Shown here: one piece after another, positions 30,176 through 53,195 of the stretch
Layout: the number at the start of each line of letters is the position of its first letter
How positions within the stretch are numbered: position 1 is the first letter of the stretch
NCBI GenBank assembly: GCA_043823745.1
Contig: JBDRAN010000028.1
Location: 3,116-67,115 of the forward strand
Source: Candidatus Omnitrophota bacterium
GTDB taxonomy: Bacteria > Omnitrophota > Gorgyraeia > Duberdicusellales > 4484-171
Length of the DNA stretch: 64,000 bases
Direction: 5' to 3'
The notes under the pieces: model-generated
Databases searched by the model: none
Told to the model about the DNA's origin: nothing
Seen by the model: only the letters and a program-made list of their open reading frames with translations
Position numbers and translations under genes: made by a program

Positions 30176-30185
30176 CACGTATATT

Positions 30186-30313
30186 TAGCGTGGAGCGTAG
30201 AGCGTTTGCTACAATTTAGCGTAGAGCGTGGAGCGTTTAGCGTAGAGCAAAAAATACTTAAAGTTCTACGTTCCCTCTTCCTATACGCTCTCCGCTATCC
30301 GCTCTACGCTTAT
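30186..30313. repeat. Palindromic repeat family B, copy B1 (TAGCGTAGAGCG / CGCTCTACGCT arms).
   Basis: The left arm is TTTAGCGTGGAGCGTAGAGCG...TTTAGCGTAGAGCGTGGAGCGTTTAGCGTAGAGC and the right arm is CGCTCTCCGCTATCCGCTCTACGCT. Confidence 0.6.
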
Positions 30314-30485
30314 TCCCCTCGGGGCGGTGTGGTAAAAAGTCAGAAGAAAGTAGAAAACAGCCATTGGCGGGAAAGACCCCGAAGAGTACACTGACGAGTG
30401 TAAGGGTGTGCGTGAAGATGTATGGTGGGCTCGCCGGCTCGAACGTTTTATTGTTCGCCCTCTCCTTTGGCGGCGATGAGGGAAG

Positions 30486-33446
30486 ATGTCAAATCTCATT
30501 CGTGTGCTCATTGTTGAAGATTCTGAAGATGATGCCTTACTGATTGTGCGCCATCTTAAAGCCGGCGGCTACGAGCCCCAGTGGCAGCGCGTGGACACCG
30601 TGTATGCGATGAGCGCCGCACTCGCCCAAGCCTGGGATGTGGCGATTATTGATTATTCTCTCCCGCAGTTAAACGGTATTGATGCGCTTGGCTTAATTAA
30701 GGAAACCGGCATCGACCTTCCGGCCATTATCGTTTCGGGTGTTTATGGCGAAGAGATAGCGGTTGAGGTAATGAAAGCAGGCGCTGCCGATTATGTTTTA
30801 AAAGAAAAACTTTCCCGCCTGGTTCCTGCCCTTAGCCGCGAATTGCAGCAAGCCAAAATACGAAAAGAACGTATTCATGCCCAAGAGAACTTCAACCGCG
30901 AAAAGCTTTTAAGTGAAAGTATTATCAATAATATTCCGGCCGGGGTTGCCTTTCTTGACAATAATTTTGTGCTGCGCCGCCATAACGTTGCCTACGCAAG
31001 CTTTCTGCGCCGCTATGCTCTCTATGCTCCGGAGCAGGCCATGGGGATGGCTTATTTTGATTATATGCCCGGCAGCAGGCCGCAGGTCGAAGAGTGGTTT
31101 GTCCGCGTCAGAGATTCGGGGTGCCCTGAAGTACGCTATAATTTTGAACTTTCCGTCGAGAAGAACGGAAAGAAGCAATTAACCTGGTGGGATACCAGTA
31201 TTGCGCCGGTGTTTGACGCCTATGGGGCGACTGAGGGCATTTTGCTTTTGACGCAGGATGTAACCGAGCGGGTGCAGATAACGCGGGATCGCGACCGGCT
31301 TTTTAATTTTTCCATCGATATGTTTTCTATTACCGGCTTCGACGGCTATTTCAAGGAAGTTAATCCCGCCTGGCAAAAGACTCTCGGTTTTACAAAAAAA
31401 GAATTATTAGCGAAACCCCTGATCCATTTTGTGTATCCGCTTGATCGGGCGGCAACGAAACTTGCCCTGGCGCAACTGCGCCAAGGGAGAGAAGTTGTTG
31501 GTTTTGATAGCCGGTTTTGTTGCAAAGACGGTACGTTTAAATGGATTTCCTGGAATGCGTTTCCTTTACCGGAGGAAAACGTTATTTTTTCTGTCGCGCG
31601 TGATATCTTGGTCCAGAAACTCGCGCATGAGTTATTGCAGCGCAGCGAAGCTCGCTACCGCACGTTGATTGAGCGGGCTACTGACGCCATATTCATGTAT
31701 ACTCGGCAAGGGAAAATCGTTGACGTTAACCCGGCCGCGCTTAAGAGTTTGGGGTATAGCCGTAAAGAATTGTTATCGATGTCTCTTTTTGATATTGAGG
31801 TTGATCGTAATCATACAACCATCCAAAGAATCATACGTAAGGCGTTGTCAGGGGCGCCGGTAATTTTTGAGGGGTGGTATCGGCGTAAAGATGGTTCGCG
31901 ATTTCCCGTTGAAATCAACATCGGTAGTTTTGAGGGTGACTGTGTTGGCGGCAAGGGGCTGATTGCTGTTGTTCGTGATGCGAGCGAGCGTAACCGTACG
32001 CAGGAAGCGCTTGCAGAGGCTCAACGTAAGCTTGTAACGTTGATGAGCAACCTCCCCGGTATGGCGTATCGTTGTCGTAACGATAAAAATTGGACCATGG
32101 AATTTGTCAGCCGGGGTTGCAAGGCGCTGACCGGATATAGCCCCGAGGCAATACTGGGAAATAGTGTTCTTTCCTATGCGGATATTATAGCGCCCCAATA
32201 CCGGGATTATGTGTGGAGTACGGTTCAGGAAGCTTTAAAGCTTCGAAAACCGTTCCAGCTTATTTACCGCATTAAAATCTCAAACGGAAAGATAAAATGG
32301 GTATGGGAGCAGGGTAGTGGTGTGTATGGCGAGAAAGGAGAACTTCAGGCATTAGAGGGTTTTATTACCGACATTTCTGATCGTAAGAACATGGAAGAAT
32401 CTTTACGTATTTCTGAGGAGCAGTACCGTCTTCTTTTTGAAAATAACCCGCATCCAATGTGGGTGGCCGATGCGAAGAGTTTCAGGTTTCTCGCGGTTAA
32501 TGACGCGGCCTTGCGTCACTATGGATATTCACGCCAGGAATTTCTTCGTATGGGCGCTGCGGATATCCGTCCCAAGGAAGATGTTTCCCGGTTTAACGAG
32601 TATCTAAAGGCAAAAAAGAACGATGCTGTTCGCACGTCAAGCCAGTGGCGCCACCGGAAACAAGACGGTACGGTTATTGATGTTGATGTGGCCTCGCATG
32701 CCATCGTATTTGCCGGGAAAAAAGCCCGTCTGGTGCTGGCCCAAGACATTACTGAGCGCAAACGGGTAGAAGTGATGCGTGAAGCGCTTATCCGTAATGT
32801 CTCTCATGAGCTGAAAACCCCTGTCGCGATGCTTTCGATGGTGCATGATATGGCTACGCGCGCAATAGCCGCCGGCGACATCGAACAGATTAAAAAAAGC
32901 TACAGCATTATGCATGAGTGTATTGTTCGTCTTAAAAAAGATATTTCTAATATTTTGCAAATCTCGGCTCTTGAGAAAATGAAAAAGAGTAAAACGCGCG
33001 CGTTATCGTTTGTGCGCATTGAATTACGCCGAATTATTGATAGAATGCCGTTGACGAAAAAGGGTATTTCTTTTTCCTGCACGATCCCTCCCGCAGCGGA
33101 TAAAATAGGTATTTCGGCGCATCACCTGCATACCCTTCTGTACAATCTTCTTGATAACGCGGTTAAATTTAGCACGGCAGGGAGTATAAAAATTCGGGGG
33201 CGGGGTGCCGGCAACAAGGTCATTCTTTACGTGCGGGATGCCGGTTGCGGCATGACGCGTGAGCAGCAGGGTAATGTATTCACCCGGTTTTTCAAGGCAC
33301 ATCCTTCCTTTTCGGGGACAGGATTGGGGCTTGCGATTTGCAAGGACATCGTAGATCTTTACGGTGGAAGCATTGCGGTTTCCTCAGCAGGGAAAAATAA
33401 GGGTACAACAGTGACGCTCGTGCTGCCACGGGCCCGGGGTCATTAA
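30486..33446 (+). CDS. Hybrid sensor histidine kinase: N-terminal REC, multiple PAS domains, then HisKA and HATPase_c.
   Basis: The REC domain has IVEDSEDDALL..D..IIDYSLP. There are 4-5 PAS repeats. The H-box is VSHELKTPVAM and the G-box is GTGLGLAICKDIV. Confidence 0.85.
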   Translation: MSNLIRVLIVEDSEDDALLIVRHLKAGGYEPQWQRVDTVYAMSAALAQAWDVAIIDYSLPQLNGIDALGLIKETGIDLPAIIVSGVYGEEIAVEVMKAGAADYVLKEKLSRLVPALSRELQQAKIRKERIHAQENFNREKLLSESIINNIPAGVAFLDNNFVLRRHNVAYASFLRRYALYAPEQAMGMAYFDYMPGSRPQVEEWFVRVRDSGCPEVRYNFELSVEKNGKKQLTWWDTSIAPVFDAYGATEGILLLTQDVTERVQITRDRDRLFNFSIDMFSITGFDGYFKEVNPAWQKTLGFTKKELLAKPLIHFVYPLDRAATKLALAQLRQGREVVGFDSRFCCKDGTFKWISWNAFPLPEENVIFSVARDILVQKLAHELLQRSEARYRTLIERATDAIFMYTRQGKIVDVNPAALKSLGYSRKELLSMSLFDIEVDRNHTTIQRIIRKALSGAPVIFEGWYRRKDGSRFPVEINIGSFEGDCVGGKGLIAVVRDASERNRTQEALAEAQRKLVTLMSNLPGMAYRCRNDKNWTMEFVSRGCKALTGYSPEAILGNSVLSYADIIAPQYRDYVWSTVQEALKLRKPFQLIYRIKISNGKIKWVWEQGSGVYGEKGELQALEGFITDISDRKNMEESLRISEEQYRLLFENNPHPMWVADAKSFRFLAVNDAALRHYGYSRQEFLRMGAADIRPKEDVSRFNEYLKAKKNDAVRTSSQWRHRKQDGTVIDVDVASHAIVFAGKKARLVLAQDITERKRVEVMREALIRNVSHELKTPVAMLSMVHDMATRAIAAGDIEQIKKSYSIMHECIVRLKKDISNILQISALEKMKKSKTRALSFVRIELRRIIDRMPLTKKGISFSCTIPPAADKIGISAHHLHTLLYNLLDNAVKFSTAGSIKIRGRGAGNKVILYVRDAGCGMTREQQGNVFTRFFKAHPSFSGTGLGLAICKDIVDLYGGSIAVSSAGKNKGTTVTLVLPRARGH

Positions 33447-33454
33447 GGAGCGTT

Positions 33455-33820
33455 ATGAAGAATATTCTAATTGTTGATGACGAGCCGGCGATGCATGAGT
33501 TGTATCGGGACATGTTTTCGTTGGCCCAAGATCGGTATGATATCGAGATCCAGTTTGATGCAGCTGAGGCGCTGGTCCGCGCGCATCAGAAAAAGTTTGA
33601 CCTTATCATTCTTGATATTATCATGGAGCCGATGGCGGGAGATTCTCTGCTTGTGTACTTAAGAAAAGACAGCCAGACTAAAGATATACCGGTCCTTATC
33701 GCCAGCGCCTTAAACCCGGCAATATTGCGAACGTTGCAGACGATCAATCACCTTACAATTATCCAGAAGCCTTTTAAGGCGAAAGACCTTTTTGAGAATC
33801 TTGATAGAATATTGAATTAA
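33455..33820 (+). CDS. Stand-alone single-domain response regulator (CheY-like REC).
   Basis: It has ILIVDDEPAMHELY...LIILDIIMEP and is 121 aa. Confidence 0.8.
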   Translation: MKNILIVDDEPAMHELYRDMFSLAQDRYDIEIQFDAAEALVRAHQKKFDLIILDIIMEPMAGDSLLVYLRKDSQTKDIPVLIASALNPAILRTLQTINHLTIIQKPFKAKDLFENLDRILN

Positions 33821-33877
33821 TGGGGAGAGATGGGCATCCGCATGCTTCGCAAGCTTAAGGCGCTCGTCGCAAGCAGG

Positions 33878-33950
33878 AAAATTACTAATGACTGAGCATA
33901 AATTACTAAATAAAAATATTTCGTAATTATAATTTAGTAATTAGTAATTT
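33878..33950. repeat. Inverted-repeat family C, copy C1 (AAATTACTAAT ... TTAGTAATTAGTAATT).
   Basis: It is visible in the sequence, and a second copy lies at 39425-39495. Confidence 0.45.
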
Positions 33951-34018
33951 GTTTGGCGCCTTGACGCTTGACACAATGCGTAATGCGTTTTAGGCTATAG
34001 GTATACAGGAGGGCCGAG

Positions 34019-34747
34019 GTGTCGTATACGATCCTTTTGGTTGATGATGATAAAGAGTTCAGGTCGGTGTTTAAAAAATACCTGGAGGGGTACCGGATTA
34101 TTGAAACCGATAGCGGCGCTGCGGCGCTTGCTATCTTAAAGAAACCCAACGATATTGATTTGGTGATACTTGATGTGGTAATGCCCGGCCTGCAGGGGAT
34201 CGATGTGTTGCGGGAAATTCGCAAGGTAAACGAAAAGTTGAGCGTTATCATGCTGACCGCATATGGTTCTAAAGATGTAGCGGTCGAGGCGCTGCGCAGC
34301 CACGCCGACGATTTTATCGAGAAGGGTATGTCCATCAGTGAGATAGAGAGGGTTATCACCAGGGTTATGGAGGCTCATGGCATTTCCGCGGGCATTCATG
34401 GCAACGGCCTCGCTGCGAAAATCGAAAAAGCAAAACGGTATGCCGAAATAAACTGTTATAAAAAATTTTCTTTACGGGATGCTGCCGAGAGCGTATGTTT
34501 GAGCCCGAAATATTTAAGCCGCGTGTTTAAGGAGTATGCAGGTACCGGATTTAGCGCGTATCGCCTGGCTATAAAGATAAAGGAAGCTCGCCGCCTTCTT
34601 GCGCATGCGACTTGTAACGTGAGTCAGATTGCCGATAAGCTAGGATATAAAAATGTAGAATCTTTTATTCGTCAGTTCAAGAAAATGACCGGTACCACCC
34701 CTTCGGTGTTCCGCAAGAGTAAAATCAAAAAAACTAAGCGCTCATGA
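34019..34747 (+). CDS. Response regulator with an AraC-type HTH output (REC + HTH_AraC).
   Basis: It has ILLVDDDKEFRSVF...LVILDVVMPG, and the C-terminus carries the AraC signature IADKLGYKNVESFIRQFKKMTG. Confidence 0.8.
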   Translation: MSYTILLVDDDKEFRSVFKKYLEGYRIIETDSGAAALAILKKPNDIDLVILDVVMPGLQGIDVLREIRKVNEKLSVIMLTAYGSKDVAVEALRSHADDFIEKGMSISEIERVITRVMEAHGISAGIHGNGLAAKIEKAKRYAEINCYKKFSLRDAAESVCLSPKYLSRVFKEYAGTGFSAYRLAIKIKEARRLLAHATCNVSQIADKLGYKNVESFIRQFKKMTGTTPSVFRKSKIKKTKRS

Positions 34748-35270
34748 CCGCGAACACAGGGACACGAACGAAAATAAAAAATCCCAAATCTCAAACTCAA
34801 AACAAATTCCAATTATCAAAACTATCCGCCGAAGGCGAGACCTCGCCAGCTATCGCTGACGGGCAATGTTCTAAACGGGATCATTTTTTGTCAGGCCCTT
34901 CCTTTAGTCGGAACAGGGAAGCCTACCCTTTAGGGTTATTGGATAATTGGAGTTTGGAACTTATTTATGTTTTTCCGCCCCTTTGGGCGAGATCTCGCCT
35001 ATATACACTAATTAATGTGGCGGAGGTGCTTGCCATTTGGAATTTTTTACACCCCTCGTCCGAGCGTATGCGGCCGCACGTCGTCGGATAACGAGCTTGT
35101 ATCCTGACGTTTTGGTGTCTACCGCCTCACGCTCCCCAAAAGCTCGCTGCTGAGTGCTTAGAGATAGTAGAAAAAAGTCAATAAAAAGTGGAAAACCCCT
35201 CTTTACCGGTTATGGGTAAGTTAGTAATATTTATATACTTAATTATAGTAGCGGATAGTGGTTACTGGAG

Positions 35271-35352
35271 AAAGTATTGAGTATCGAGTACAGAGCATTA
35301 AGTACGTAGTTCTAAAGCGCAACACTCAATACGCAATGCTCAATACGAAAGC
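35271..35352. repeat. Family A-related partial copy A4 (AGTATTGAGTATCGAGTACAGAGC ... ACTCAATACGCAATGCTCAATACG).
   Basis: It is visible in the sequence. Confidence 0.45.
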
Positions 35353-35505
35353 GGAATAGTTTGTGGCGTAAGGCTAACGTGGCGCGCAAGGCGCCATGTA
35401 TTCCAAAAAAATCCGTGGCTTGGGCTTTACGCCACCTGTCTTTATATAGAGATTCCAGAGATCAGGAAAAGATTACCTGTAATCATTTTTTTAATCGCTG
35501 TAATC

Positions 35506-35712
35506 TTGAGCAATATTCATTATACTAAAATGGTACAAGTTCAATGTAAAAAATGTGGCGAGATACGCTTTACTGCCTATCCGCAGATATCGGTATGCGT
35601 TTGTGGCGGGAGATTTAAAGCTATTGATTTCGACCGCCAGGACAAGGAATGCCCTGCGGAGAAAAAATGCCAACACTTGATTGATTCCTTAGAGTACCTA
35701 CGGGAAACGTAA
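35506..35712 (+). CDS. Putative small zinc-ribbon protein (CKKCG...CVCGG).
   Basis: It is a 68-aa ORF with two CxxC/CxC pairs. The RBS is weak, and it is the only ORF in a 1.1 kb gap. Confidence 0.3.
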   Translation: MSNIHYTKMVQVQCKKCGEIRFTAYPQISVCVCGGRFKAIDFDRQDKECPAEKKCQHLIDSLEYLRET

Positions 35713-35884
35713 CACGTAGCCAACCGCTCCCGCGAGTGCAAAAATTCGCTTTCTTTTTGACGCAAGCGTGTATACAATAGAAATATTATATGACTCATGC
35801 GTGGCCGATGATGCGGTTCTTGAGGCAATTCTTTTCCTGTAGGGAGGGGTTGCCTTTTTTTATTGATGGATATGTAATTGCGCA

Positions 35885-36262
35885 ATGAAGAAAACGATCC
35901 TCATAGTCGATGATGATCCGGCGATGCATGAAGTATATGGTGATATGTTTCGGCAATCAGACCGGTACCAGCTTGCGCGCGCCTATAGCGTCGAGGAGGC
36001 TTTGAAGGGATTGAAAACTCGGCGCATTGACCTGATACTGCTTGATATCATCATGGAACCGATACCGGGCTCCTATCTGTATCTTAAAGTAGCGCGGGAT
36101 AAAAAAATACAAAACGAGAAAATACCTATCATCGTCGTCAGCGTTCTTAAAGAACATGAGCTTGGCTCTTTGGGAAAACTCGACAACCTTATATTTTTTG
36201 CCAAGCCCTTTAAGAAAGAGGCGTTGATGGGGAAGATTGAGGAATTGTTGGGAAGCGATTAG
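35885..36262 (+). CDS. Stand-alone single-domain response regulator, paralogous to the one at 33455.
   Basis: It has ILIVDDDPAMHEVYGDMF...LILLDIIMEP. Confidence 0.8.
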   Translation: MKKTILIVDDDPAMHEVYGDMFRQSDRYQLARAYSVEEALKGLKTRRIDLILLDIIMEPIPGSYLYLKVARDKKIQNEKIPIIVVSVLKEHELGSLGKLDNLIFFAKPFKKEALMGKIEELLGSD

Positions 36263-36264
36263 CA

Positions 36265-36368
36265 AAAAGTATTGAGTATCGAGTATAGAGCATCGAGCAT
36301 TGAACAGGGAATAAAAAATGAGTATTTAATAAACTCAATACCCAATACTCACTGCACAATACGTAATA
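36265..36368. repeat. Repeat family A, copy A2.
   Basis: The sequence reads AAAAGTATTGAGTATCGAGTATAGAGCATCGAGC...AAACTCAATACCCAATACTCACTGCACAATACG. Confidence 0.6.
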
Positions 36369-36379
36369 AGGGGGGGAAT

Positions 36380-36745
36380 ATGCTTAAGAAAAAAATATTA
36401 GTTGTTGATGATGAACGTGATTTTCTTAATTTAATACGCATACGGCTTGAGTCAAGCAAATACGAAGTTATTACTGCTTGCGACGGCGTCGATGCGCTCT
36501 TAAAATTTGATGAATGCCCGCCGGACGCAGTCATGCTCGATATTCTCATGCCCAACATGGACGGCCTGGAAGTTTTAAAGAAAATAAGAGCCAAGGACAA
36601 AAATATCCCTATCTTCATCATTACCGCGTTTTCTAATGAGGAGCGACTGAAGCTTGCCAAGGAATTAAATGTTAACGGTTTCATGGATAAAACCGCCGAT
36701 TTAAAAACCGAAATAGAGCATGTGGCGGAAGCGCTCGGGAAATAG
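36380..36745 (+). CDS. Stand-alone single-domain response regulator.
   Basis: It has ILVVDDERDFLNLI...AVMLDILMPNMDG. Its stop codon TAG is the first TAG of the family-B repeat. Confidence 0.8.
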   Translation: MLKKKILVVDDERDFLNLIRIRLESSKYEVITACDGVDALLKFDECPPDAVMLDILMPNMDGLEVLKKIRAKDKNIPIFIITAFSNEERLKLAKELNVNGFMDKTADLKTEIEHVAEALGK

Positions 36746-36774
36746 CGTAGAGCGGATAGCGTAGAGCGTAGAGG
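36742..36774. repeat. Family B left-arm copy, B2 (ATAGCGTAGAGCGGATAGCGTAGAGCGTAGAGG).
   Basis: It is visible in the sequence. Confidence 0.5.
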
Positions 36775-36811
36775 AAGAAAAATATACAGGAATAGCGCAA
36801 AAGGAAAGAAA

Positions 36812-37162
36812 ATGGTAACAAAGAGCTTCAAAGATCTGATAGTTTGGCAGAAAGCATATGCTTTAACTATAGAGATTTATAAGGTGGCTAGTCATTTCCC
36901 TGCTGTTGAGTTGTATGGCTTGCGGCAACAGATGTGTCGTGCCGCAATATCCATACCGTCCAATATCGCTGAAGGATATGGCCGTTCGTATCGTAAGGAA
37001 TATTCACAATTTCTCTCTATAGCCTATGGGTCCTTGTGCGAGCTGGAAACGCAGTATTTATTAGCACTTGAATTTGGTTATCTCAAAAAAACCGAAACGA
37101 TTGAACTTTTAATAAAAGAAGTGGGAAGTATGCTTTATTGTATGATAAATCCCAGAAAATAG
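36812..37162 (+). CDS. Four-helix-bundle protein of the TIGR02436 / 23S rRNA intervening-sequence protein type.
   Basis: It has WQKAYALTIEIYKVASHFP...ISIPSNIAEGYGR...ELETQ, and the RBS is AAAGGAAAG. Confidence 0.75.
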   Translation: MVTKSFKDLIVWQKAYALTIEIYKVASHFPAVELYGLRQQMCRAAISIPSNIAEGYGRSYRKEYSQFLSIAYGSLCELETQYLLALEFGYLKKTETIELLIKEVGSMLYCMINPRK

Positions 37163-37165
37163 GAG

Positions 37166-37252
37166 AAAGCGGAGAGCGTAGAGAAAGAAGGAGCGTAGAA
37201 TTTTACATTATTTATTTTCCCCTCTACGCTATCCGCTCCACGCTCTACGCTA
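37166..37252. repeat. Family B, copy B3: a complete hairpin element directly downstream of the four-helix-bundle gene.
   Basis: The left arm is GCGGAGAGCGTAGAGAAAGAAGGAGCGTAGAA. The loop is TTTTACATTATTTATTTTC. The right arm is CCCTCTACGCTATCCGCTCCACGCTCTACGCTAG. Confidence 0.6.
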
Positions 37253-37268
37253 GAAAAAAGGAGGATCA

Positions 37269-37658
37269 ATGGATGCCAAGAAAAAAGTTTTGATTATTGA
37301 CGATGAAGAAAATTTTACCAAAATCATCAAACTGAACCTTGAGGCAACGGGAAAATACGATGTCTTTGTCGAGAACGATTCAATCCGGGGCTTGAGCAGT
37401 GCAAAAAAAAATATGCCTGACGTGATACTACTCGATATTCTTATGCCTAAGATTGACGGGTTTGAGCTTTTGCGTGCACTTAAGAAAGATATGCCTACAA
37501 TCGCGATCCCGGTAATTATGCTTACCGCGGTAATGGCCGATGAAGCAAAGGCTATGGCCGCCCGGTTGTATGATGAGTCGTATATGGTGAAGCCGGTTGC
37601 CGCCGAGGTGCTTGAGAAAGAAATAGAGAGAGTGTTGGCGCGCCACAGTGGTAATTAG
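37269..37658 (+). CDS. Stand-alone single-domain response regulator.
   Basis: It has VLIIDDEENFTKII...VILLDILMPKIDG. Confidence 0.8.
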   Translation: MDAKKKVLIIDDEENFTKIIKLNLEATGKYDVFVENDSIRGLSSAKKNMPDVILLDILMPKIDGFELLRALKKDMPTIAIPVIMLTAVMADEAKAMAARLYDESYMVKPVAAEVLEKEIERVLARHSGN

Positions 37659-37843
37659 GTCCTTTCATCGTCTATTCTTCGTAGTCCGTTCCCTTCGGGG
37701 ATCCCCTGACGGGGAGGCTTCGCACGGCTCCGCACTCGTTAGTCGTCCGTGACGGAATACGAACGAGTGCATAGCCTGCCGCAGGGCACGGGATACGGAA
37801 GACGGTCGACGAGATAATTATTTATTAAAGAAAGGAGCCTGCT

Positions 37844-39349
37844 ATGTTTGATTCCCAAAGTCTAAGCGCGCAACCCGAAATAATACATGTTTTACTTATT
37901 GAAGATAATCCCGGAGACGTGCGGTTGTTCAAAGAGTTGTTATCGGAGATTCCCGAGACCCCGTTTACCGTAGAATGCGTCAGCCGGCTCGGCGAGGCTT
38001 TAGCGCGCCTTGAAAAAAGGGGTATTGACGTCATTGTCGTTGATCTCGGCCTTCCTGATAGCAAGGGTATTGACACATTTAGGAGTATTTATACTACCGC
38101 GCCTCGCGTGCCGATCGTGGTTGTTACGGGAATGCATGGTCAAGCTTTGAGCGTTTTGGCTCAGGGCGCCCAGGATTATCTTATCAAAGGAAACGTCGAC
38201 GCTGCCATTATATCGCGGACATTGCGATATGCGATTGAGCGTAACAAGCTTAAAACCGCGTATGAGGATTTAGTGAATACGATCACGCATGAGTTGCGCA
38301 TCCCCCTTGGTATTGTACGGGAGGGGGTTTCCCAGATTTGCGATGGCCTGCACGGGGAGATATCCGAAAAAAGCAAAGAATTTCTGGTGCTGGCAATCCA
38401 CAATATCGACAGGCTCAAGCGGCTTATCGATAATCTTTTAGGTGTCGCCAAGCTCGATGCGGGAAAGGTGAAGTTACATAAGTCCATTTTTGATATAACC
38501 GAGCTGGCGCGCGAAATGAGCGCTATTTTTTCAACTCGTGTACAGGGGCGTGACGTGGAGTTGCGTTGTCGTTTTCCCGGCAGCGTCATTAACGTGTATG
38601 CCGATCGGGATAAGATCGTGGAAGTGTTTACCAACCTGATCGGAAACGCGCTTAAGTTTACCGAACGGGGCCTCATCGAGATTGTGCTTCTTGAGAAAGA
38701 GGATTATGTCGCCTGCGCGGTGCGTGATACCGGTTACGGTATTCCTGCGGAACACCTGCCGCATATCTTCGATAAATTTCAGCAATTCTCGCGTAAAGTA
38801 GCTTTCGGGGAAAAAGGTACCGGCCTTGGCCTTGCGATCGTGAAGGGTATTCTTGAGTTGCACGATGAAGCAATCGACGTAGAAAGCGCGATTGGAGCCG
38901 GCACAACGTTTACGTTTACGCTCCATAAGCATCTGGCGCAGCCGCCCTGCAAGGAGCACATTGATGCGTGCATTGCGCAGGCTGGGCTCAAAAACGTGTC
39001 TTTTTCTTTGATCGCGGTCTCGGGCATTAATCTGGAGACATTAAAACACGTTGCGACGCCGGAATCGGCAACGCAAATCATGACGCAGGTACACGCAATA
39101 TTTAAAAGTAGCCTGCGTCGTGCCGAGGATAGCGTTTTTGATTTAACGAGTGAGATACTCGTGCTTTTGATTGACTGTGACAAAGAGGGTGTTGGGGTGG
39201 TTAAGTCCCGGCTTGCCCAACAATTATTCAATTATCTGGCGAGCAACGGATTTTCTGATAGAATATATCTTAAATTTGGCTGTGTCACCTATCCCGATGA
39301 TGCGACCAGCCGGGAAGGGTTACTCGCTGCGGTAATATCGCAACTGTAG
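37844..39349 (+). CDS. Hybrid histidine kinase: REC, HisKA, HATPase_c, and a C-terminal degenerate GGDEF-like domain.
   Basis: The REC domain has VLLIEDNPGDVRLF..VIVVDLGLPD. The H-box is ITHELRIPLG and the G-box is GTGLGLAIVKGI. In the C-terminal roughly 150 aa the GG(D/E)EF motif is replaced by DLTSE, while the RAED (RxxD) I-site is kept. Confidence 0.8.
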   Translation: MFDSQSLSAQPEIIHVLLIEDNPGDVRLFKELLSEIPETPFTVECVSRLGEALARLEKRGIDVIVVDLGLPDSKGIDTFRSIYTTAPRVPIVVVTGMHGQALSVLAQGAQDYLIKGNVDAAIISRTLRYAIERNKLKTAYEDLVNTITHELRIPLGIVREGVSQICDGLHGEISEKSKEFLVLAIHNIDRLKRLIDNLLGVAKLDAGKVKLHKSIFDITELAREMSAIFSTRVQGRDVELRCRFPGSVINVYADRDKIVEVFTNLIGNALKFTERGLIEIVLLEKEDYVACAVRDTGYGIPAEHLPHIFDKFQQFSRKVAFGEKGTGLGLAIVKGILELHDEAIDVESAIGAGTTFTFTLHKHLAQPPCKEHIDACIAQAGLKNVSFSLIAVSGINLETLKHVATPESATQIMTQVHAIFKSSLRRAEDSVFDLTSEILVLLIDCDKEGVGVVKSRLAQQLFNYLASNGFSDRIYLKFGCVTYPDDATSREGLLAAVISQL

Positions 39350-39424
39350 TAACGCAGGGTCGTAGGGTTCAATACGTGACAATGTGCCAAGGCATCAAAG
39401 TGTCAAAGCATCAACGCGTCAGAG

Positions 39425-39495
39425 TAAATTACTAATTGCTAAATTCTAATGACGAACCATTTCCTTTTAGTAATTCGTGCTTAGTAATTAGTGAT
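39425..39495. repeat. Inverted-repeat family C, copy C2.
   Basis: It has AAATTACTAATTGCTAAATTC...TTTTAGTAATTCGTGCTTAGTAATTAGTGATT. Confidence 0.45.
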
Positions 39496-39562
39496 TTTTC
39501 TGCTCTACGTTAGACTTGATACCCTGACACTTTTCCATTGATGTTTTTCAACCAATACCTGA

Positions 39563-40552
39563 ATGGTTAATTTCTTCTACTCCATAAGCGGCTATATCTT
39601 TTTTTCCATCTTTCTTGTTTCTGTATTCTGCCTTTTATGTATCACCCTTTTTATAATTCTGAGACAGCGTAAAAAATTACAAAGTCAGTCGTTGCGCCTT
39701 TTAGCGGTGACCGAAGAAGAGCGTTTTACGCTCGAGCGGGCGCGTCATTTTGTTTACCGCCTCGATACGCGGGGGATTGCGCGCTATGTTTCTGCCTCGA
39801 TTGAAAGGATTACCGGCCGCCTGCCACAGGAGTGGCGTGCGCACTACGCTACCTTTCTTACTGATAATATCTGTAATCAGAAAGCGATCGAATATATTGA
39901 GAAGGCGCTGCGCGCCGGCGAGAAGCCCCCGGTTTTTGAGCTGGAGATGTTTCATAAAAACGGCAGGCGTATTTATCTTGAGATGAGCCTGCAGCCGACG
40001 CGTGAAGTCGGGAACGTAACCGGCATTGCGGGTATCGCGCGGGATATCAGCGAGCGCAAAGAAATGGAGAGGGAGCTGGCGAAAGCTCACGAACTTAGCC
40101 TTTCAATCATCAAAGCGCTTCCTTTCGGGATGGATATTGTAGATTATAACGGTAATATCCTGTATGCGAGCGAAAAGTTTATTGCAGCATTTGGGCATGA
40201 TATTATCGGTAAGAAGTGCTGGATTCTTTATCGGGACGATAAAAAGCAGTGCACCAGCTGTCCCCTGATAAAAGGTGTGGCGGTCGGACAGGTCCTGGTT
40301 TCAGAGGTGGGCGGTGTTTTGGACGGAAAAATATTTGAGATAACGCACGTCGGTCTTGTTTTTAACGGGGCACCCGCGGTACTTGAATTTTTTAACGATA
40401 TTACCGAGCACAAGCGTATTCAAGATGATCTTAATACAAAGGTCCAGGCGCTCCAGCGTTTCCAGAGCGTGACGATTGACCGTGAGTTAAAAATGAAAGA
40501 GCTTAAAGCGCGGATTGCCGAGCTTGAGGAGAAACTAGAAAAATATACATAG
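39563..40552 (+). CDS. Membrane-anchored tandem-PAS protein with a C-terminal coiled coil and no output domain.
   Basis: It has an N-terminal TM helix, two PAS-like segments and a final heptad-rich tail. Its stop TAG lies inside a family-B repeat. Confidence 0.65.
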   Translation: MVNFFYSISGYIFFSIFLVSVFCLLCITLFIILRQRKKLQSQSLRLLAVTEEERFTLERARHFVYRLDTRGIARYVSASIERITGRLPQEWRAHYATFLTDNICNQKAIEYIEKALRAGEKPPVFELEMFHKNGRRIYLEMSLQPTREVGNVTGIAGIARDISERKEMERELAKAHELSLSIIKALPFGMDIVDYNGNILYASEKFIAAFGHDIIGKKCWILYRDDKKQCTSCPLIKGVAVGQVLVSEVGGVLDGKIFEITHVGLVFNGAPAVLEFFNDITEHKRIQDDLNTKVQALQRFQSVTIDRELKMKELKARIAELEEKLEKYT

Positions 40553-40722
40553 CGTAGAGTCCCCTTTGGGGGAGGCTTCGCACCGTATAGCGTAGAGCGT
40601 AGAGGAAGAGAGGGTAAGTGTGAGAGGCGTAGTTTTAGAAATTTTTCTTTATTTTCTACTCTACGCTAAACGCTCCACGCTCTACGCTAAATCGTAGCAA
40701 ACGTTCTACGCTCCACGCTAGG
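40550..40722. repeat. Family B, copy B4: a long hairpin element that includes the 34-mer GTCCCCTTTGGGGGAGGCTTCGCACCGTATAGCG.
   Basis: The left arm is TAGCGTAGAGCGTAGAGGAAG. The loop is AT-rich. The right arm is ACTCTACGCTAAACGCTCCACGCTCTACGCTAAATCGTAGCAAACGTTCTACGCTCCACGCTA. Confidence 0.6.
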
Positions 40723-40739
40723 ATATGGATAACTAAATT

Positions 40740-42818
40740 ATGCTTAACCTAAAATTCGGAATCAGGCAGAAAGTAATCGTGATGATTTTTATTTCTGTTT
40801 TTGCCGCGGTTATCCTGACGGCAGGATTTTATTACTTTCTTGGGTACCGGTTCCAGGAGAAGGTTATGAGCGCGCAGTATTACCGTAGCGCCCAGATTCT
40901 TTCGCAAGCGTTAGGGAAAATGTTTAACGACCAGATGCAGTTTATACGAGTACAGGTGGCTACGTACCCATGGAACGACGACTTGGTTCGGGTCAATGCG
41001 CAGTATCAGGGTCGCGCGCAGGAATCGATTGTTGCCGAGCTTATGGAGAAAGATCAACATTGGATAGCGGATCAAGGCCAGGATGGAATCATCCGGCAAT
41101 ATTTGCAAAATCCCGCAAGCGAAAAGCTTGTGCGCCTGGTAGCTGCCGACCCTAAAATTGCGGAAATCTTTATTACCGATGCGTACGGTGGCCTAGTGGC
41201 TGCCTCGGGAAGAACTTCAGATTTTTATCAGGCGGACGAACAGTGGTGGCAGGACGGCTATGCCGGAGGAGCCGGGCGCGATTGCGTCGGTGACGTCGAG
41301 TATGACGCGTCCGCGAAGACCTTGAGTATTCCGTTTATAACGCCGGTGCGCGATGAAAAGGGGAACGTCTCAGGGGTTTGCAAGGCAGTGCTTAACCTTG
41401 AGGCGTTCCTTGAACCCCTCTCAAGCCTTTCGATCGGAAAAACCGGTCACGCCGCGTTGCTCAACGCAAACGGGCAGATCATTTTTCATCAGGGTATTAC
41501 CCCGTTAAGCCGGTTATTTTCCGACCGGAAAGATTTCAGCGTTTTCCTTGCGGAGCAACAAAAGTTCTCAATAGCGCCCTTGTCTCACGAGCAGAACGAA
41601 CGAAGGTTTTTCGTTAGCGTGCCTTTTATCTCGTCGTTATTCGCGGACAAACAAATGCGGTGGTATGTAGTGATTGAGCAGGCCGCGTCTGAGGTATTTG
41701 CACCGCTTGTTGAGCTGAACATCAAGCTTATGGCTGTTGCCGGGGTTACGCTTATTCTGATGCTGCCTTTGGGGTTTTTATTGGGGGGTGTTTTTTCCCG
41801 GCCTATCCTCGCTCTCCATAAGGCGATCACTAAAATTACCGAAGGTGTATGGGATTATGCGGTTGAGATTAAAAGCGGAGACGAGGTTGAACAATTTGCC
41901 GAAGCGTTTAAGAAAATGATTTTAACGACACGTAATAAACAGCGGGAGCTGATTGCCGCAAAAAATGAGCTTGAAGCGTTGGCAAAAAGCCTTGAAGATA
42001 AGGTCCGGGAGCGTACGGGGGAGCTTGAGCGTGTTAATAAGGCGAGCCTTAATATTCTTGAAGATCTGACCGAAGCGAAAAGAAATTTAAGCAAGTATTC
42101 CAAGGATCTTAAGGAAGCGATCATTGTTAAGTCAGACTTTACGTCTATGGTTTCTCATGAGTTACGCACGCCCCTGACCGCGATCAAAGAAGGTATTTCG
42201 ATCGTGCTTGACGGCACAACCGGGCAGCTCAACAAAGACCAGGAGAACTTTCTTTCGATAGCCAAAAGCAATGTTGACCGCCTCACGCGGCTCATTAACG
42301 ACATTCTTGATTTTCAGAAGCTCGAGGCGGGTAAATTAGAGTTTACGATGAAGGTGTATGACATAACCGAAGTTCTTTGGGAAGTTCAGAATACGATGGA
42401 ATCGGCGATTAAGGCGAAAAAGCTTACCTTTGCCTCTGAATTCCCCGGGAATCTGCCTGAATTGACCTTCGATCGCGATAGAATCATTCAGGTGATCATG
42501 AACCTTATTACCAACGCATGTAAGTTTACCGAACGCGGCGGCATTATCTTGCGCGCAGAACTGTTGGGTGAGTATGTTCGGGTATGCGTCGAGGATACCG
42601 GTTGTGGTGTTTCCGAGGGGGATATCCCTAAGCTTTTTCAGAAATTTACTCAACTGGAGACCGGTGTCAGCAGAAAAGTCGGCGGCACCGGGCTTGGCCT
42701 TGCGATCTCAAAACAAATTATCGACGCGCACGGCGGAAAAATTTGGCTTGAATCGGTAGCCGGCAAAGGCTCGAAGTTTTATTTTACCTTACCGATTAAG
42801 AAAGCGGATAGCGTATAG
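40740..42818 (+). CDS. Sensor histidine kinase with a periplasmic Cache-like domain, then HAMP, HisKA and HATPase_c.
   Basis: It has two TM helices flanking a periplasmic domain of about 280 aa. The H-box is VSHELRTPLTAIKEG and the G-box is GTGLGLAISKQII. It ends in KADSV, which is encoded by the repeat. Confidence 0.85.
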   Translation: MLNLKFGIRQKVIVMIFISVFAAVILTAGFYYFLGYRFQEKVMSAQYYRSAQILSQALGKMFNDQMQFIRVQVATYPWNDDLVRVNAQYQGRAQESIVAELMEKDQHWIADQGQDGIIRQYLQNPASEKLVRLVAADPKIAEIFITDAYGGLVAASGRTSDFYQADEQWWQDGYAGGAGRDCVGDVEYDASAKTLSIPFITPVRDEKGNVSGVCKAVLNLEAFLEPLSSLSIGKTGHAALLNANGQIIFHQGITPLSRLFSDRKDFSVFLAEQQKFSIAPLSHEQNERRFFVSVPFISSLFADKQMRWYVVIEQAASEVFAPLVELNIKLMAVAGVTLILMLPLGFLLGGVFSRPILALHKAITKITEGVWDYAVEIKSGDEVEQFAEAFKKMILTTRNKQRELIAAKNELEALAKSLEDKVRERTGELERVNKASLNILEDLTEAKRNLSKYSKDLKEAIIVKSDFTSMVSHELRTPLTAIKEGISIVLDGTTGQLNKDQENFLSIAKSNVDRLTRLINDILDFQKLEAGKLEFTMKVYDITEVLWEVQNTMESAIKAKKLTFASEFPGNLPELTFDRDRIIQVIMNLITNACKFTERGGIILRAELLGEYVRVCVEDTGCGVSEGDIPKLFQKFTQLETGVSRKVGGTGLGLAISKQIIDAHGGKIWLESVAGKGSKFYFTLPIKKADSV

Positions 42819-42834
42819 CGATTAGCGGATAGCA

Positions 42835-42928
42835 GGAAGTATTGGGTATAGAGTACAGAGTATTGAGTAGAGAATGAAAAATAAGGATTTATAAACTCAA
42901 TACCCAATACTCGTACACAATACGAACG
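42835..42928. repeat. Repeat family A, copy A3.
   Basis: It has GGAAGTATTGGGTATAGAGTACAGAGTATTGAGTAGAG...AAACTCAATACCCAATACTCGTACACAATACG. Confidence 0.6.
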
Positions 42929-42984
42929 CAAAAAACATCGTGATAATTGAGAGAAAGAGTGTATAATAACTCAATATTACAAGA

Positions 42985-43102
42985 AAGCGTTTAGCGGTTA
43001 GTCCCCTTTGGGGGAGGCTTCGCACCGTATAGCGAGAGAAAAAAGGAGTATAGAATTTCACATTCTTTATTTTCCGCCTCTATGCTACCCACTCTACGCT
43101 AG
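42985..43102. repeat. Family B, copy B5, which shares the 34-mer with B4.
   Basis: It has GCGTTTAGCGGTTAGTCCCCTTTGGGGGAGGCTTCGCACCGTATAGCG...CCTCTATGCTACCCACTCTACGCTAG. Confidence 0.6.
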
Positions 43103-43122
43103 ATCCCGGATGATGATAGTAA

Positions 43123-43539
43123 ATGCTTAACAATATGCCAAAATTAACTATATTGCTGGCTGATGATGAAAAAGATTTCCTGACTATGTTGGCTATGCGC
43201 CTTAAGGCGTGGGGGTATGAGGTCATCGTAGCGGAGGAAGGAGCAGAGGCAGTTAGGTTGGTACGCGATAAAAAACCCGATGTCGTTATCATTGACTATA
43301 TGATGCCTGAAATGGACGGTGTTGCGGCCTTGCGGGAGATTCGAAAAACCAATGCGGATGTGCCCGTTATTATGCTTACCGCGTATCCCGATAAACATTC
43401 TATCAAGGGGGCTGAAACGTTGGATGTTCTCGCGTATATACCTAAAGTGAGCGCTCATTCCGACACACAAGCGCTCCTGCGATCAGCGCTGCGTATGGCA
43501 GAGAGGGCGATCGGCAAAGGGAAAGCGGATAGCGTTTAG
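43123..43539 (+). CDS. Stand-alone single-domain response regulator.
   Basis: It has ILLADDEKDFLTML...VVIIDYMMPEMDG. It ends in KADSV plus a TAG supplied by a family-B repeat. Confidence 0.8.
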   Translation: MLNNMPKLTILLADDEKDFLTMLAMRLKAWGYEVIVAEEGAEAVRLVRDKKPDVVIIDYMMPEMDGVAALREIRKTNADVPVIMLTAYPDKHSIKGAETLDVLAYIPKVSAHSDTQALLRSALRMAERAIGKGKADSV

Positions 43540-43633
43540 CGGATAGCGCAGAGCGTAGAGGAAACGGAGAGTTTAGAAAATACTGTTCTTTTTATTCTCC
43601 ACTCTACGCTAAACGCTCCACGCTCTACGCTAG
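43524..43633. repeat. Family B, copy B6, which shares a 31-mer, ACTCTACGCTAAACGCTCCACGCTCTACGCTA, with B4.
   Basis: It has AAAGCGGATAGCGTTTAGCGGATAGCGCAGAGCGTAGAGGAAACGG...loop...ACTCTACGCTAAACGCTCCACGCTCTACGCTAG. Confidence 0.6.
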
Positions 43634-43641
43634 AATTAACA

Positions 43642-44967
43642 TTGAGGAAAATGGACGAAACAATCAGCCCCGCACAATTAGGTTCTATCAGAAGCGAAGA
43701 GGTAAGAAGGTTGTTTGAAGACATCGGCGGCCGCACCAAGCCGGTTCTGCAAAAACATGTTCTTGATCTATTGTCCGCCTATGGTGCTGGCAAAGAAGTG
43801 GCGGCTACGTTTGAGTTTAAGCGCTGCCTTGATATCCTTGTTGAAAAAATAGCGAATCTTCTTTCTGTTGAGATCGTTTCCCTGATGCTTAAGGAAAAAG
43901 GGACTGATGAGCTGGTGATGGAGATTTCCCGCGGTATAGAAAATGACGCGGCAAAAAGCGCCAAAGTAAAGATTGGCGATGGCATTGCCGGCTGGATCGC
44001 CTCAAGCGGCGAAGCGCTGCTGGTTGAGGATATAACGAAAGATGAGCGTTTCAGTTCTTGCGGCGGAAAGTATTATACTAATTCGTTATTGAGCGTGCCG
44101 CTTACCGTGAACAACGAAGTTATCGGTGTTATCAACGTTAACAATAAAACCTCAAAAACGGTTTTCTCAAGCGACGACCTCGACATATTAAGGATCGTCG
44201 CTGATCTTGCCGCGGTGGCTATTGAGAACGCTCGTTTTCGCAGGGATGCGGCCGCGCGCGAGCAGTTTAAATCAGATTTTATTTCCAACGTCTCGCATGA
44301 GCTGCGTACCCCGCTTACGGCTATCAAGGAAGCGGTGGGCATGACGTTAGACGGTATTACCGGAGAGGTGAACGATGACCAGAAGCGTTTCTTGCGCATG
44401 GCGCAGCAGAATATTGATCGTCTAAGCCGCCTGATCAGCGAGATGCTTGCGCTTGCCGCGTGTGAGTCAAGGCACACGGTACGCCGGCAGCTCTTTGACG
44501 TTGTCGAAGTCGTCAAGGATGCCGCTTTGTTTCTAAAGCCGCTGGCAAAAGAGCGAATGATTACATTCCTGGAGATGCTTCCCTCCAGTGTCATCGGAGT
44601 TTGGGCTGACCGGGATAAGATCAGCCAGGTTTTTATTAATCTTATCGGCAATGCGATCAAATATAATCGTGAACACGGACGGGTGGAGGTAGCGGTCGAG
44701 GACTCCGGCGATTTTGTTAAGATTGTAGTCTCCGATAACGGCATCGGTATCCCGGCGCAGGATCTGGAGCGTATTTTTGAGCGTTTTTACCGGGTTCAGC
44801 AGCGTGCCGAGCATAAGAACCGGGAAGGTTCCGGATTGGGCCTTGCCATTACCAAAGAAATTATCGACGCTTCAGGCGGAGAGATTTTTGTCAGCTCCCA
44901 GGTCGGGCGCGGCAGCGCGTTCACGGTAGCATTACCTAAAGATATGAGGAAGAGCGGCCATGGATAA
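43642..44967 (+). CDS. GAF-domain sensor histidine kinase (GAF, HisKA, HATPase_c).
   Basis: It has a GAF segment (IAGWIASSGEALLVEDI...VPLTVNNEVIGVINV). The H-box is VSHELRTPLTAIKEA and the G-box is GSGLGLAITKEII. Confidence 0.85.
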   Translation: MRKMDETISPAQLGSIRSEEVRRLFEDIGGRTKPVLQKHVLDLLSAYGAGKEVAATFEFKRCLDILVEKIANLLSVEIVSLMLKEKGTDELVMEISRGIENDAAKSAKVKIGDGIAGWIASSGEALLVEDITKDERFSSCGGKYYTNSLLSVPLTVNNEVIGVINVNNKTSKTVFSSDDLDILRIVADLAAVAIENARFRRDAAAREQFKSDFISNVSHELRTPLTAIKEAVGMTLDGITGEVNDDQKRFLRMAQQNIDRLSRLISEMLALAACESRHTVRRQLFDVVEVVKDAALFLKPLAKERMITFLEMLPSSVIGVWADRDKISQVFINLIGNAIKYNREHGRVEVAVEDSGDFVKIVVSDNGIGIPAQDLERIFERFYRVQQRAEHKNREGSGLGLAITKEIIDASGGEIFVSSQVGRGSAFTVALPKDMRKSGHG

Positions 44968-45334
44968 AAAAAGAATTTTGCTGGTTGATGATGAAAAAGA
45001 CCTTTCGGATACCGTACGCTTTCGTCTCCAGCATGCCGGTTACGATGTTTTGTGCGCGTATGACGGCTTAGAGGCAATTGAGTGCGCGCGTAAAGAAAAA
45101 CCCGACCTTATTATTCTTGATTTAATGCTGCCTAAGCTCGACGGCTATAAAGTGTGCCGCATGCTTAAGTTTGACGAGCAGTATAAAAAAATTCCGATAA
45201 TCCTTTTTAGCGCCAAAGCGCAAGAATCCGATAAGCAGCTGGGTAAGGAGGTAGGCGCCGATTCCTATATTACAAAACCATTTGAGCCCAGCGTACTTCT
45301 TGATAAGATTAAAGAACTGCTCGCATTACAATAG
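44960..45334 (+). CDS. Stand-alone single-domain response regulator (PilH/CheY-like) directly upstream of pilB.
   Basis: It has ILLVDDEKDLSDTV...LIILDLMLPKLDG. It overlaps the kinase stop by 8 nt. Confidence 0.8.
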   Translation: MDKKRILLVDDEKDLSDTVRFRLQHAGYDVLCAYDGLEAIECARKEKPDLIILDLMLPKLDGYKVCRMLKFDEQYKKIPIILFSAKAQESDKQLGKEVGADSYITKPFEPSVLLDKIKELLALQ

Positions 45335-45508
45335 GTGCCCGTCCGCGCGTGGCTATTGCAGCGTCTGTATAGAACGTTTTCCTCTGTTTTTGGTTTTGGT
45401 ACTATACCGTACGTATTACGGTTTTTGTCCGTATAACGGCAGCCTTTCGTCTGGTGTGCCGTATGATGTTCGTTCCCGGTGATGCCGGCGGCAGGAATCT
45501 GTGGAGGA

Positions 45509-48386: not shown

Positions 48387-48389
48387 CGT

Positions 48390-48782: not shown

Positions 48783-48791
48783 AAATGCGTT

Positions 48792-48808
48792 TGGGGTTAG
48801 GGTTTGCG
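48792..48808 (+). promoter_or_regulatory. Possible sigma-54 (-24/-12) promoter, TGGGGTTAGGGTTTGCG, upstream of pilA.
   Basis: It has GG-N10-GC spacing with a TTGC -12 element, about 35 nt upstream of the pilA start. No NtrC-type activator is present in the window. Confidence 0.25.
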
Positions 48809-48840
48809 TAAGGAGGGAGTATATAAAAAAAGGAGGGTGT

Positions 48841-49203: not shown

Positions 49204-49353
49204 TAGTAGGTACCGGTTTTCCCGCGACATGAATGCTTCCTGATGCGCAAGGCGCCGCGAACGCGGATGACTCTTGTGCGCGTGCGCGTCTTTTGCCGGC
49301 AGCATACTCGTTACTGTAATCAAAACGCGTAGCTTGCCGGAATAAGGAGGAGC

Positions 49354-53182: not shown

Positions 53183-53195
53183 GAAGGCTATAGCT

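Follow-up and report, generated by a model that had tools for sequence, protein, structure and literature searches.

Which of the signalling genes crowded upstream of a pilus assembly ATPase gene take part in controlling the pilus? This question is raised by a 64-kb stretch of DNA (hereafter referred to as the window) from a metagenome-assembled genome (MAG) of Candidatus Omnitrophota, in which about 15 kb between an AsmA/DUF748 gene (28841-30175) and pilB form an island of two-component genes, every supported gene being on the plus strand (Table 1). Omnitrophota are uncultured, mostly ultra-small bacteria. Seymour et al. described near-universal type IVa pilus clusters, linked to F-type ATPases, in this phylum, where the pili are thought to mediate host or prey attachment; response regulators, two-component systems, receivers and kinases are unmentioned in that work (PMC10066038). 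Our literature searches combining Omnitrophota with response regulator, and Velamenicoccus with kinase, found nothing relevant that links pili to receivers or kinases.

Domains in the island proteins were called with Pfam, and about 40 of the larger open reading frames (ORFs) of the window beyond the island were scanned as well. An earlier note, made from the sequence alone, had described four sensor kinases, six single-domain receivers, one REC-AraC regulator and one PAS-only membrane protein upstream of pilB, and all of these were recovered directly in front of pilB/pilC: four HisKA kinases (HK1 to HK4), six stand-alone receivers (REC1 to REC6), REC-AraC and a transmembrane (TM)-PAS-PAS protein. 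The receiver proteins number seven, the six single REC proteins and REC-AraC, and not eight as the note's title had it; nine REC domains are present when those of two hybrid kinases are included. The note had gone on to treat the whole 15 kb as one multi-kinase network plausibly controlling the pilus. From a comparison with 160 related loci we favour, with moderate confidence, a different arrangement, in which the 15 kb would consist of two separately conserved two-component modules lying side by side: module A (30486-37658: HK1, REC1, REC-AraC, a Zn-ribbon protein and REC2 to REC4) and, nearer to pilB, module B (37844-45334: HK2, the TM-PAS-PAS protein, HK3, REC5, HK4 and REC6), the latter being a pilus control unit.

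A stand-alone receiver is conserved next to pilB

As a forward test of the tie between receivers and pilus genes, 75 PilB-encoding loci were fetched with 10-kb flanks. Receiver and kinase genes in the related loci were located by BLAST and by hidden Markov models built from the window's own domains, and such home-made models may miss very divergent receivers and kinases in relatives. The close PilB relatives of the window all come from Omnitrophota MAGs. Among the 41 loci of this clade (PilB identity of 54% or more, with over 400 nt of sequence available upstream), 26 encode, upstream of pilB on the same strand, an orthologue of REC6 that has about 122-129 aa and 60-76% identity; it lies within 1.3 kb of pilB in 25 of these 26 loci, and in many the spacing is 0-35 nt or the genes overlap. 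Upstream of pilB in the 29 loci with more divergent PilB, which served as the distant comparison set, no REC6 orthologue was found (0/29). A gene with any REC domain precedes pilB in 31/41 Omnitrophota loci versus 2/29 distant loci, and Fisher's p for the forward synteny is about 5e-9, a value that is indicative only, the loci being related.

For the reverse test, we scanned metagenomes with the REC6-family alignment and counted pilB or pilC when it lay at most 1.5 kb downstream. This was the case for 11 of 15 genes at least 58% identical to REC6, for 4 of 17 genes in the range of 50-58%, and for none of the 35 below 50%. The conservation of REC6 (60-76%) is similar to that of PilB (54-66%) and higher than that of PilC or PilMN. 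Mean column identity in the REC6 family alignment is 74%, with invariant phospho-acceptor residues. An alignment of the six stand-alone receivers likewise shows no variation in the acidic pair, the phospho-acceptor Asp or the Lys, and direct reading of the translations finds these residues in REC-AraC and in the REC domains of the two hybrid kinases, HK1 and HK2.

In the window, REC6 starts ahead of the HK4 stop, with an overlap of 8 nt (ATGGATAA) through which the two genes may be translationally coupled. From the end of REC6 it is 177 nt to the pilB ATG at 45512, the start given in NCBI's annotation of an identical contig, or 144 nt to a GTG at 45479; the overlap had been reported correctly before, the gap as 175 nt. 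The REC6 gene is identical to one on contig JAHJZK010000317 of GCA_018827245.1.

Other genes of module B recur in the same setting. REC5 orthologues (44-56% identical) lie beside REC6 in nine loci (L006, L010, L013, L016, L018, L022, L030, L032 and L073), and L036 has another within this range. HK4 orthologues adjoin REC6 and pilB in L036 (52%) and L073 (49%). Full-length HK3 orthologues (42-43%) are found upstream of REC5/REC6 and pilB in L016, L018 and L036, in each case preceded by a PAS protein; the TM-PAS-PAS protein would be paired with HK3, and HK3 is predicted from its dCache domain to sense an extracytoplasmic signal.

In two loci, L006 and L010, a complete CheR-CheW-CheW-MCP-CheA-CheB cluster (MCP, methyl-accepting chemotaxis protein) is followed by REC6-like receivers and then by pilB. 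It follows from this order that REC6 occupies the position of PilG/PilH, and that an alternative input may be seen in the HisKA kinases. To this extent the earlier proposal of an alternative to the Pil-Chp system stands; HisKA kinases and CheA coexist in L010, however, and are therefore not strict alternatives. Judged by these comparisons, REC6 appears to be constant and the input side modular.

Candidate c-di-GMP receptor domains recur in the neighbouring kinases

Nearly all HisKA kinases of REC6-bearing loci, irrespective of their sensor domains, have a dimerization and histidine phosphotransfer (DHp) domain of one class (SHELRTPL[ST][IA][TI]KEG[IV]SL.LDG..G.IN..Q...L.....NIDRL); the exception is a dCache kinase (L007:3585-5636) encoded 3 kb from REC6. 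The pattern fits HK2, HK3 and HK4, and does not fit HK1 (SHELKTPVAMLSMVHDM...). A common DHp class suggests that these kinases probably phosphorylate the same stand-alone receivers.

The HK2 core was recognized by Pfam (HisKA 32.5 bits, HATPase 91.6 bits) and has the H-box THELRIP with the conserved His. Its C-terminal 140 residues had been described as a degenerate GGDEF domain, and a profile search bears this out: aligned with ten orthologues and compared with the PDB, they match diguanylate cyclases at E=5e-13. Ten of the 11 members of this profile match Pfam GGDEF singly, the window copy falling below the Pfam threshold. The catalytic A-site is lost in 19/19 aligned members (LTSEI in the window, D-T-x-E-I/F elsewhere). 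All 19 retain, five residues upstream, the (R/K)xxD motif of the I-site (RAED in the window), in which the Asp is invariant.

REC6 and pilB have the HK2 type as their most frequent kinase neighbour. In L082, L087, L091 and L092, a full-length HK2-like kinase (REC, HisKA, HATPase, dead GGDEF), a REC6-like receiver, pilC, pilins and pilMN follow one another in this order, which pilO closes where the contig reaches far enough. Many kinases near REC6 end in a dead GGDEF domain, and others end in PilZ. Kinases near REC6 in the genome loci L021, L032, L039 and L047 carry PilZ at the C-terminus, its RxxxR and DxSxxG motifs being intact, and the same domain is encoded directly upstream of a REC6-like gene in the metagenome loci L078 and L079. 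In L028 and L029, REC-EAL proteins are encoded directly upstream of pilB. A link to cyclic di-GMP (c-di-GMP) appears in three independent forms, dead GGDEF, PilZ and REC-EAL, and the kinases of the proximal half look able to sense this nucleotide. In the four PilZ kinases of the genome loci, inspection by eye also found what is apparently a GGDEF-like segment between HATPase and PilZ (L021:7681-9621, L032:6580-8541, L039:3234-5174 and L047:1465-3444).

Binding of c-di-GMP by PilB was considered and is not favoured. The MshEN-like domain of PilB scores 36.3 bits against the NCBIfam model of the c-di-GMP motif, just under the 38-bit cut-off, and by eye both of its 24-residue motifs lack RLG and the terminal Q of what we take to be the consensus. 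From this score and this reading, c-di-GMP is more likely sensed at the kinase.

The distal half is conserved in pilus-free loci of relatives

The distal half of the island would be a separate conserved module, free of pilus genes in relatives. The gene order in L159-L161 runs groES, REC-AraC, REC, a Zn-ribbon protein of 58 aa, a REC-PAS kinase like HK1, REC2-like, REC3-like and then unrelated genes; these modules contain no pilus genes. Their HK1-like hybrid is 31% identical to HK1 over 637 aa, and their REC2 orthologue is 50-52% identical. The Zn-ribbon homologue (58 aa; L159:11312-11488) lies inside the REC-AraC module, so that this small protein is a conserved member of the module in other Omnitrophota. 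REC-AraC relatives are abundant at 50-65% identity, and orthologues at 60-65% occur in pilus-free contexts. REC1 is a paralogue of REC2, and a REC2-like gene lies directly 3' of the HK1-like kinase in L159-L161; REC1 is the probable partner of HK1. In L158, which is also pilus-free, REC-AraC (64%), REC4 (70%), REC5 (57%) and HK4 (55%) are followed directly by a DNA-alkylation-repair gene (64%), whose counterpart in the window lies at 56521, past the pilus cluster. A second REC4 orthologue (51%) is found in L070. REC3 orthologues occur in both contexts, in the pilus-free modules (58-59%) and beside REC6 in L007, L039 and L070 (50-60%).

These results limit a pilus-control network of several kinases, as proposed in the earlier note, to the proximal module, for which the forward and reverse synteny of REC6 speaks; for the island as a whole, the pilus-free modules of L158 and L159-L161 argue against a single network. 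Kinases and receivers next to unrelated loci, which the note had named as evidence that would count against it, are found for the distal half and in part for HK4 and REC5. Nor are the outputs confined to single-domain receivers, REC-AraC being a DNA-binding one.

A proposed mechanism and its alternatives

Gene content, synteny and motif conservation were observed, and from these we infer the phosphotransfer partners, the binding of c-di-GMP and the target of REC6. Module B would be the local form of a phylum-wide control unit of a type IVa-like pilus. HK3 (extracytoplasmic dCache), HK4 (cytoplasmic GAF) and HK2 (REC and dead GGDEF) would converge on REC5 and REC6. As the conserved output, phosphorylated REC6 would contact the pilus motor (PilB, PilC or PilM-N), as PilG and PixG do, and REC5 would act as a second receiver, which like PilH and PixH might be an antagonist or a phosphate sink. 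In HK1 and HK2 the REC domain lies at the N-terminus and is an input domain; HK2 would integrate an upstream phosphoryl input with c-di-GMP, the latter entering at the kinase through the degenerate GGDEF domain and not at the ATPase. Module A, in which HK1 would go with REC1 and REC2, would be an independent unit with transcriptional output via REC-AraC, adjacent in this genome. A more specific version, which we put forward only tentatively, is a CheA-independent, phylum-specific switch: interchangeable HisKA kinases with a c-di-GMP receptor domain, either dead GGDEF or PilZ, would phosphorylate one conserved receiver that gates PilB/PilC directly, signals being merged at the kinase and attachment to host cells being controlled in this way.

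Several observations weigh against the two-module arrangement or the tie of REC6 to the pilus. In 10/41 Omnitrophota loci no receiver gene lies within 10 kb upstream of pilB, so that the link is frequent and not obligatory. Three or four REC6-like genes have no pilus genes downstream (L078, L079, L086, and L093, where only 921 nt of downstream sequence are available). Searched against the PDB, the REC6-family profile matched generic receivers only (PhoP, VicR, PleD-REC1, RR468 and CheY), with no particular affinity to PilG/PilH. The module borders are blurred, because the pilus-free L158 has orthologues of REC5 (57%) and HK4 (55%), and because REC3-like genes occur in both contexts. The common DHp class is a broad, HK853-like one, so that sharing it is no proof of shared partners, and Fisher p-values overstate the independence of phylogenetically related loci. 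Contiguity between 34.9 and 38.3 kb, and with it the join across REC2-REC4, comes from one assembly: the contigs of a short-read MAG break at about these window positions, one contig end falling in the gene-free stretch 34748-35529.

Could all four kinases and all receivers (30486-45334) nevertheless form one network dedicated to pilus extension and retraction? The genes are contiguous on the same strand, all nine REC domains look phosphorylatable, REC3-like and REC4-like genes turn up in REC6 loci, and the HK2 REC domain shares 43% identity with the one at the N-terminus of the HK1-like kinase of L159, which allows cross-talk. We regard such a network as improbable all the same: the module of REC-AraC, HK1, REC2 and REC3 is conserved beside housekeeping genes without pili in L159-L161, in L158 the DNA-alkylation-repair gene comes straight after REC-AraC, REC4, REC5 and HK4, the DHp domain of HK1 is of a different class, and REC-AraC gives the distal part a transcriptional output of its own. 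That the adjacency is meaningless seems very improbable. Paralogous two-component genes would in that case pile up in repeat-rich hot spots, one of them having landed by chance at pilB, and it is true that receiver and kinase paralogues shuffle among loci, that the gaps are full of repeated hairpins and hold an inserted 23S_rRNA_IVP-family (IVP) gene, and that assemblies break in this region. Chance is disfavoured for REC6, however, by the conservation of its place beside pilB or pilC in orthologue, strand and position and in both search directions, and also by its kinase neighbours, in which a single DHp class and c-di-GMP receptor domains are conserved along with it.

A rather unlikely explanation, in our estimate, keeps REC6 and the kinases tied to the pilus and leaves the motor untouched, REC6 being a sink or an intermediate for pil expression, or acting on adhesion, secretion or host attachment through another partner. 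REC6 is without an output domain and resembles generic receivers, and there is precedent in single-domain receivers of the DivK type, which act via other signalling proteins. The gene order of the pilus cluster resembles that of a type II secretion system (T2SS), and the scan of the window ORFs turned up neither PilT nor a secretin. On the other side stand the tight, often overlapping position of REC6 before pilB or pilC, the CheY-like position of its family behind the Che clusters of L006 and L010, and the direct action of PixG and PilG on the motor. Under the favoured arrangement of two modules, a receiver conserved like the motor ATPase, together with recurring c-di-GMP receptor domains in the kinases, offers a testable handle on when the pili are deployed. 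A further lesson of the island is that closely packed signalling genes should not be taken for one network absent comparative evidence.

Relation to known systems

In the Pil-Chp system of Pseudomonas (PilG/PilH, ChpA, PilJ) and in the Tax1 system of cyanobacteria (PixG/PixH, PixL, PixJ), CheY-like stand-alone receivers, usually two or more, are encoded beside pilus genes, as REC5 and REC6 are here. PixG binds PilB1 solely in its phosphorylated form and has an antagonist in PixH (PMC11181946). The placing of the REC6 family behind a CheA/MCP/CheW/CheR/CheB cluster in L006 and L010 is a further likeness. Unlike in these systems, no CheA-type domain (Hpt, H-kinase_dim, CheW) and no MCP, CheW, CheR or CheB was found in the island proteins or the other window ORFs scanned, in agreement with the earlier note as far as CheA and MCP are concerned. 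No His-Asp-His-Asp phosphorelay is evident either, Hpt being without a match among the window proteins scanned. The inputs in the window are classical HisKA kinases with dCache, GAF, PAS and REC sensors, and REC6 has neither a PATAN domain nor a specific sequence affinity to PilG/PilH. The occurrence of the same receiver family with a Che-type kinase in some genomes and with HisKA kinases in others informs on how pilus control circuits are rewired.

SgmT of Myxococcus xanthus is a kinase that binds c-di-GMP via the I-site of its degenerate GGDEF domain, and it affects type IV pilus-dependent motility (PMC3509222). HK2 is alike in combining REC, HisKA, HATPase and a dead GGDEF domain with RAED, and is predicted to bind c-di-GMP. 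In contrast to HK2-type kinases, which are encoded beside a stand-alone receiver and pilB/pilC, SgmT is the product of an orphan gene and signals to the DNA-binding DigR, with control of the extracellular matrix; the domain order of HK2 differs as well, and its GGDEF domain is more divergent. The PilS/PilR system is likewise a two-component pair whose genes adjoin those of the pilus, but PilR is an NtrC-type sigma-54 activator of pilin transcription, whereas no AAA+/sigma-54 or helix-turn-helix (HTH) output was found in module B or the window ORFs scanned beyond the island. The island and those ORFs likewise yielded no regulator of the NtrC type (AAA+/sigma-54) or the OmpR type, as the earlier note had stated for the island. 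With the c-di-GMP-binding ATPases of the MshE/PilB type, the window PilB shares an MshEN-like N-terminal domain, but its motif score lies under the cut-off (36.3 versus 38 bits). Stand-alone receivers that control pili are known, as are kinases with c-di-GMP receptor domains; their combination and its phylum-wide conservation appear to be undescribed.

Features of the island and the pilus cluster

The positions of the features are listed in Table 1. Four of them had no place in the earlier note: the IVP gene, the Zn-ribbon gene, the gene-free stretch 34748-35529 and the tandem-heptamer intergenic hairpins. Over its length of about 0.8 kb, the gene-free stretch lacks any supported gene, and Rfam gave no match there, also at permissive thresholds (34700-35900). 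An ORF at 34744-35091 had no family match and was treated as non-coding, and a 157-aa ORF from 36272 was rejected as a form of REC3, its extension being an artefact of upstream repeats. A promoter and terminator scan of 30000-46000 gave counts no higher than those of shuffled sequences, and transcription units could not be drawn.

Table 1. Features of the island, the adjoining pilus cluster and the intergenic repeats (window positions)
Feature	Position	Strand	Description	Basis or remark
HK1	30486-33446	+	REC, about 5 PAS, HisKA, HATPase	Pfam; distal module A
REC1	33455-33820	+	stand-alone receiver	Pfam; start 9 nt past HK1 stop
REC-AraC	34019-34747	+	REC and AraC HTH, YesN-like DNA-binding response regulator	Pfam
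Zn-ribbon protein	35530-35712	+	~60 aa, CxxC...CxCGG	homologue in L159 module
REC2	35885-36262	+	stand-alone receiver	Pfam
REC3	36380-36745	+	stand-alone receiver	Pfam
Inserted element	36743-37252	+	IVP gene in loop of tandem-heptamer-armed hairpin	inverted arms 36743-36786, 37209-37252
IVP gene	36812-37162	+	23S_rRNA_IVP family, non-signalling	Pfam 124.6 bits
REC4	37269-37658	+	stand-alone receiver	Pfam
HK2	37844-39349	+	REC, HisKA, HATPase, degenerate GGDEF	Pfam and profile search
TM-PAS-PAS protein	39563-40552	+	C-terminal coiled coil, without output domain	Pfam
HK3	40740-42818	+	dCache, HAMP, HisKA, HATPase	Pfam
REC5	43135-43539	+	stand-alone receiver	Pfam
HK4	43651-44967	+	GAF, HisKA, HATPase	Pfam
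REC6	44960-45334	+	stand-alone receiver	Pfam; conserved pilus-linked receiver
PilB	45512-47167	+	PilB/GspE-type assembly ATPase, N-terminal MshEN-like domain	Pfam T2SSE 464 bits and MshEN
Rest of pilus cluster	47172-54203	+	PilC/GspF, conserved 130-aa protein, prepilins, PilM-PilN, PilO/GspM-like, conserved 147-aa protein	
Prepilins, three	starts 48769, 50148, 50717	+		
PilM-PilN	51557-53182	+	fusion, 541 aa	weak similarity to Akkermansia Amuc_1101 family
PilO	53196-53756	+	PilO/GspM-like protein	
Intergenic hairpin	30186-30311	.	(AGCGTAG)n/(CTACGCT)n arms, no gene in loop	fold z-score -5.9
Intergenic hairpin	40581-40720	.	similar heptamer hairpin	fold z-score -3.2
Intergenic hairpin	43537-43632	.	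similar heptamer hairpin	fold z-score -4.8

The pilus cluster contains PilB, PilC, prepilins and PilM/N/O, the set by which a type IVa pilus is recognized, and its gene order is conserved across Omnitrophota loci. PilB scores 594 bits against TIGR02538 (cut-off 675), and both PilB and PilC fall below the equivalog cut-offs of the type IV pilus as well as the T2SS models. The order pilB-pilC-pilins-pilMN-pilO resembles gspE-F-G..K-L-M. PilT, the secretin PilQ and a prepilin peptidase were not found among the ORFs scanned in the 64-kb window, and may be encoded elsewhere in the genome.

Intergenic repeats and other observations

Matches to the AGCGTAG/CTACGCT 18-mer (up to three mismatches) number 17 in the window, all within 30186-43632, versus 0.02 expected. 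Besides the hairpins in Table 1, such repeats form further hairpins without a gene at 33879-33950 and 35269-35350, and other heptamers (TAATTAC, GAGTATC) form like hairpins in other gaps and at 17602-17680. The heptamer hairpins could be sites of RNA processing or stability, or of recombination. The layout of an IVP gene, whose family is of the four-helix type, within a hairpin is the same in all four copies examined (window, L022:6723-7146, L082:3671-4183 and L082:8251-8745), the heptamers differing among copies (AGCGTAG/AGCGGAT, GGGAGAT, GTTCGGA). In Coxiella, the rRNA intervening sequence carries a gene of the 23S_rRNA_IVP family (PMC4990558); the element recalls such intervening sequences, here placed between protein genes. 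A second repeated intergenic element, a CCCCTTTGGGGG hairpin, is found at 40550-40592, 42992-43034, 37702-37725 and 34978-34998, and its two 43-nt copies are 93% identical.

At gathering thresholds, the sole Rfam match in the whole window is an nhaA-I riboswitch (57764-57820; 55.8 bits, gathering score 37), unrelated to the island. It immediately precedes a CdaA(DAC)-YbbR fusion gene (57894-59402), with an MscS channel gene (59441-60490) coming next, and it would be an ion-sensing RNA before a cyclic di-AMP synthase.

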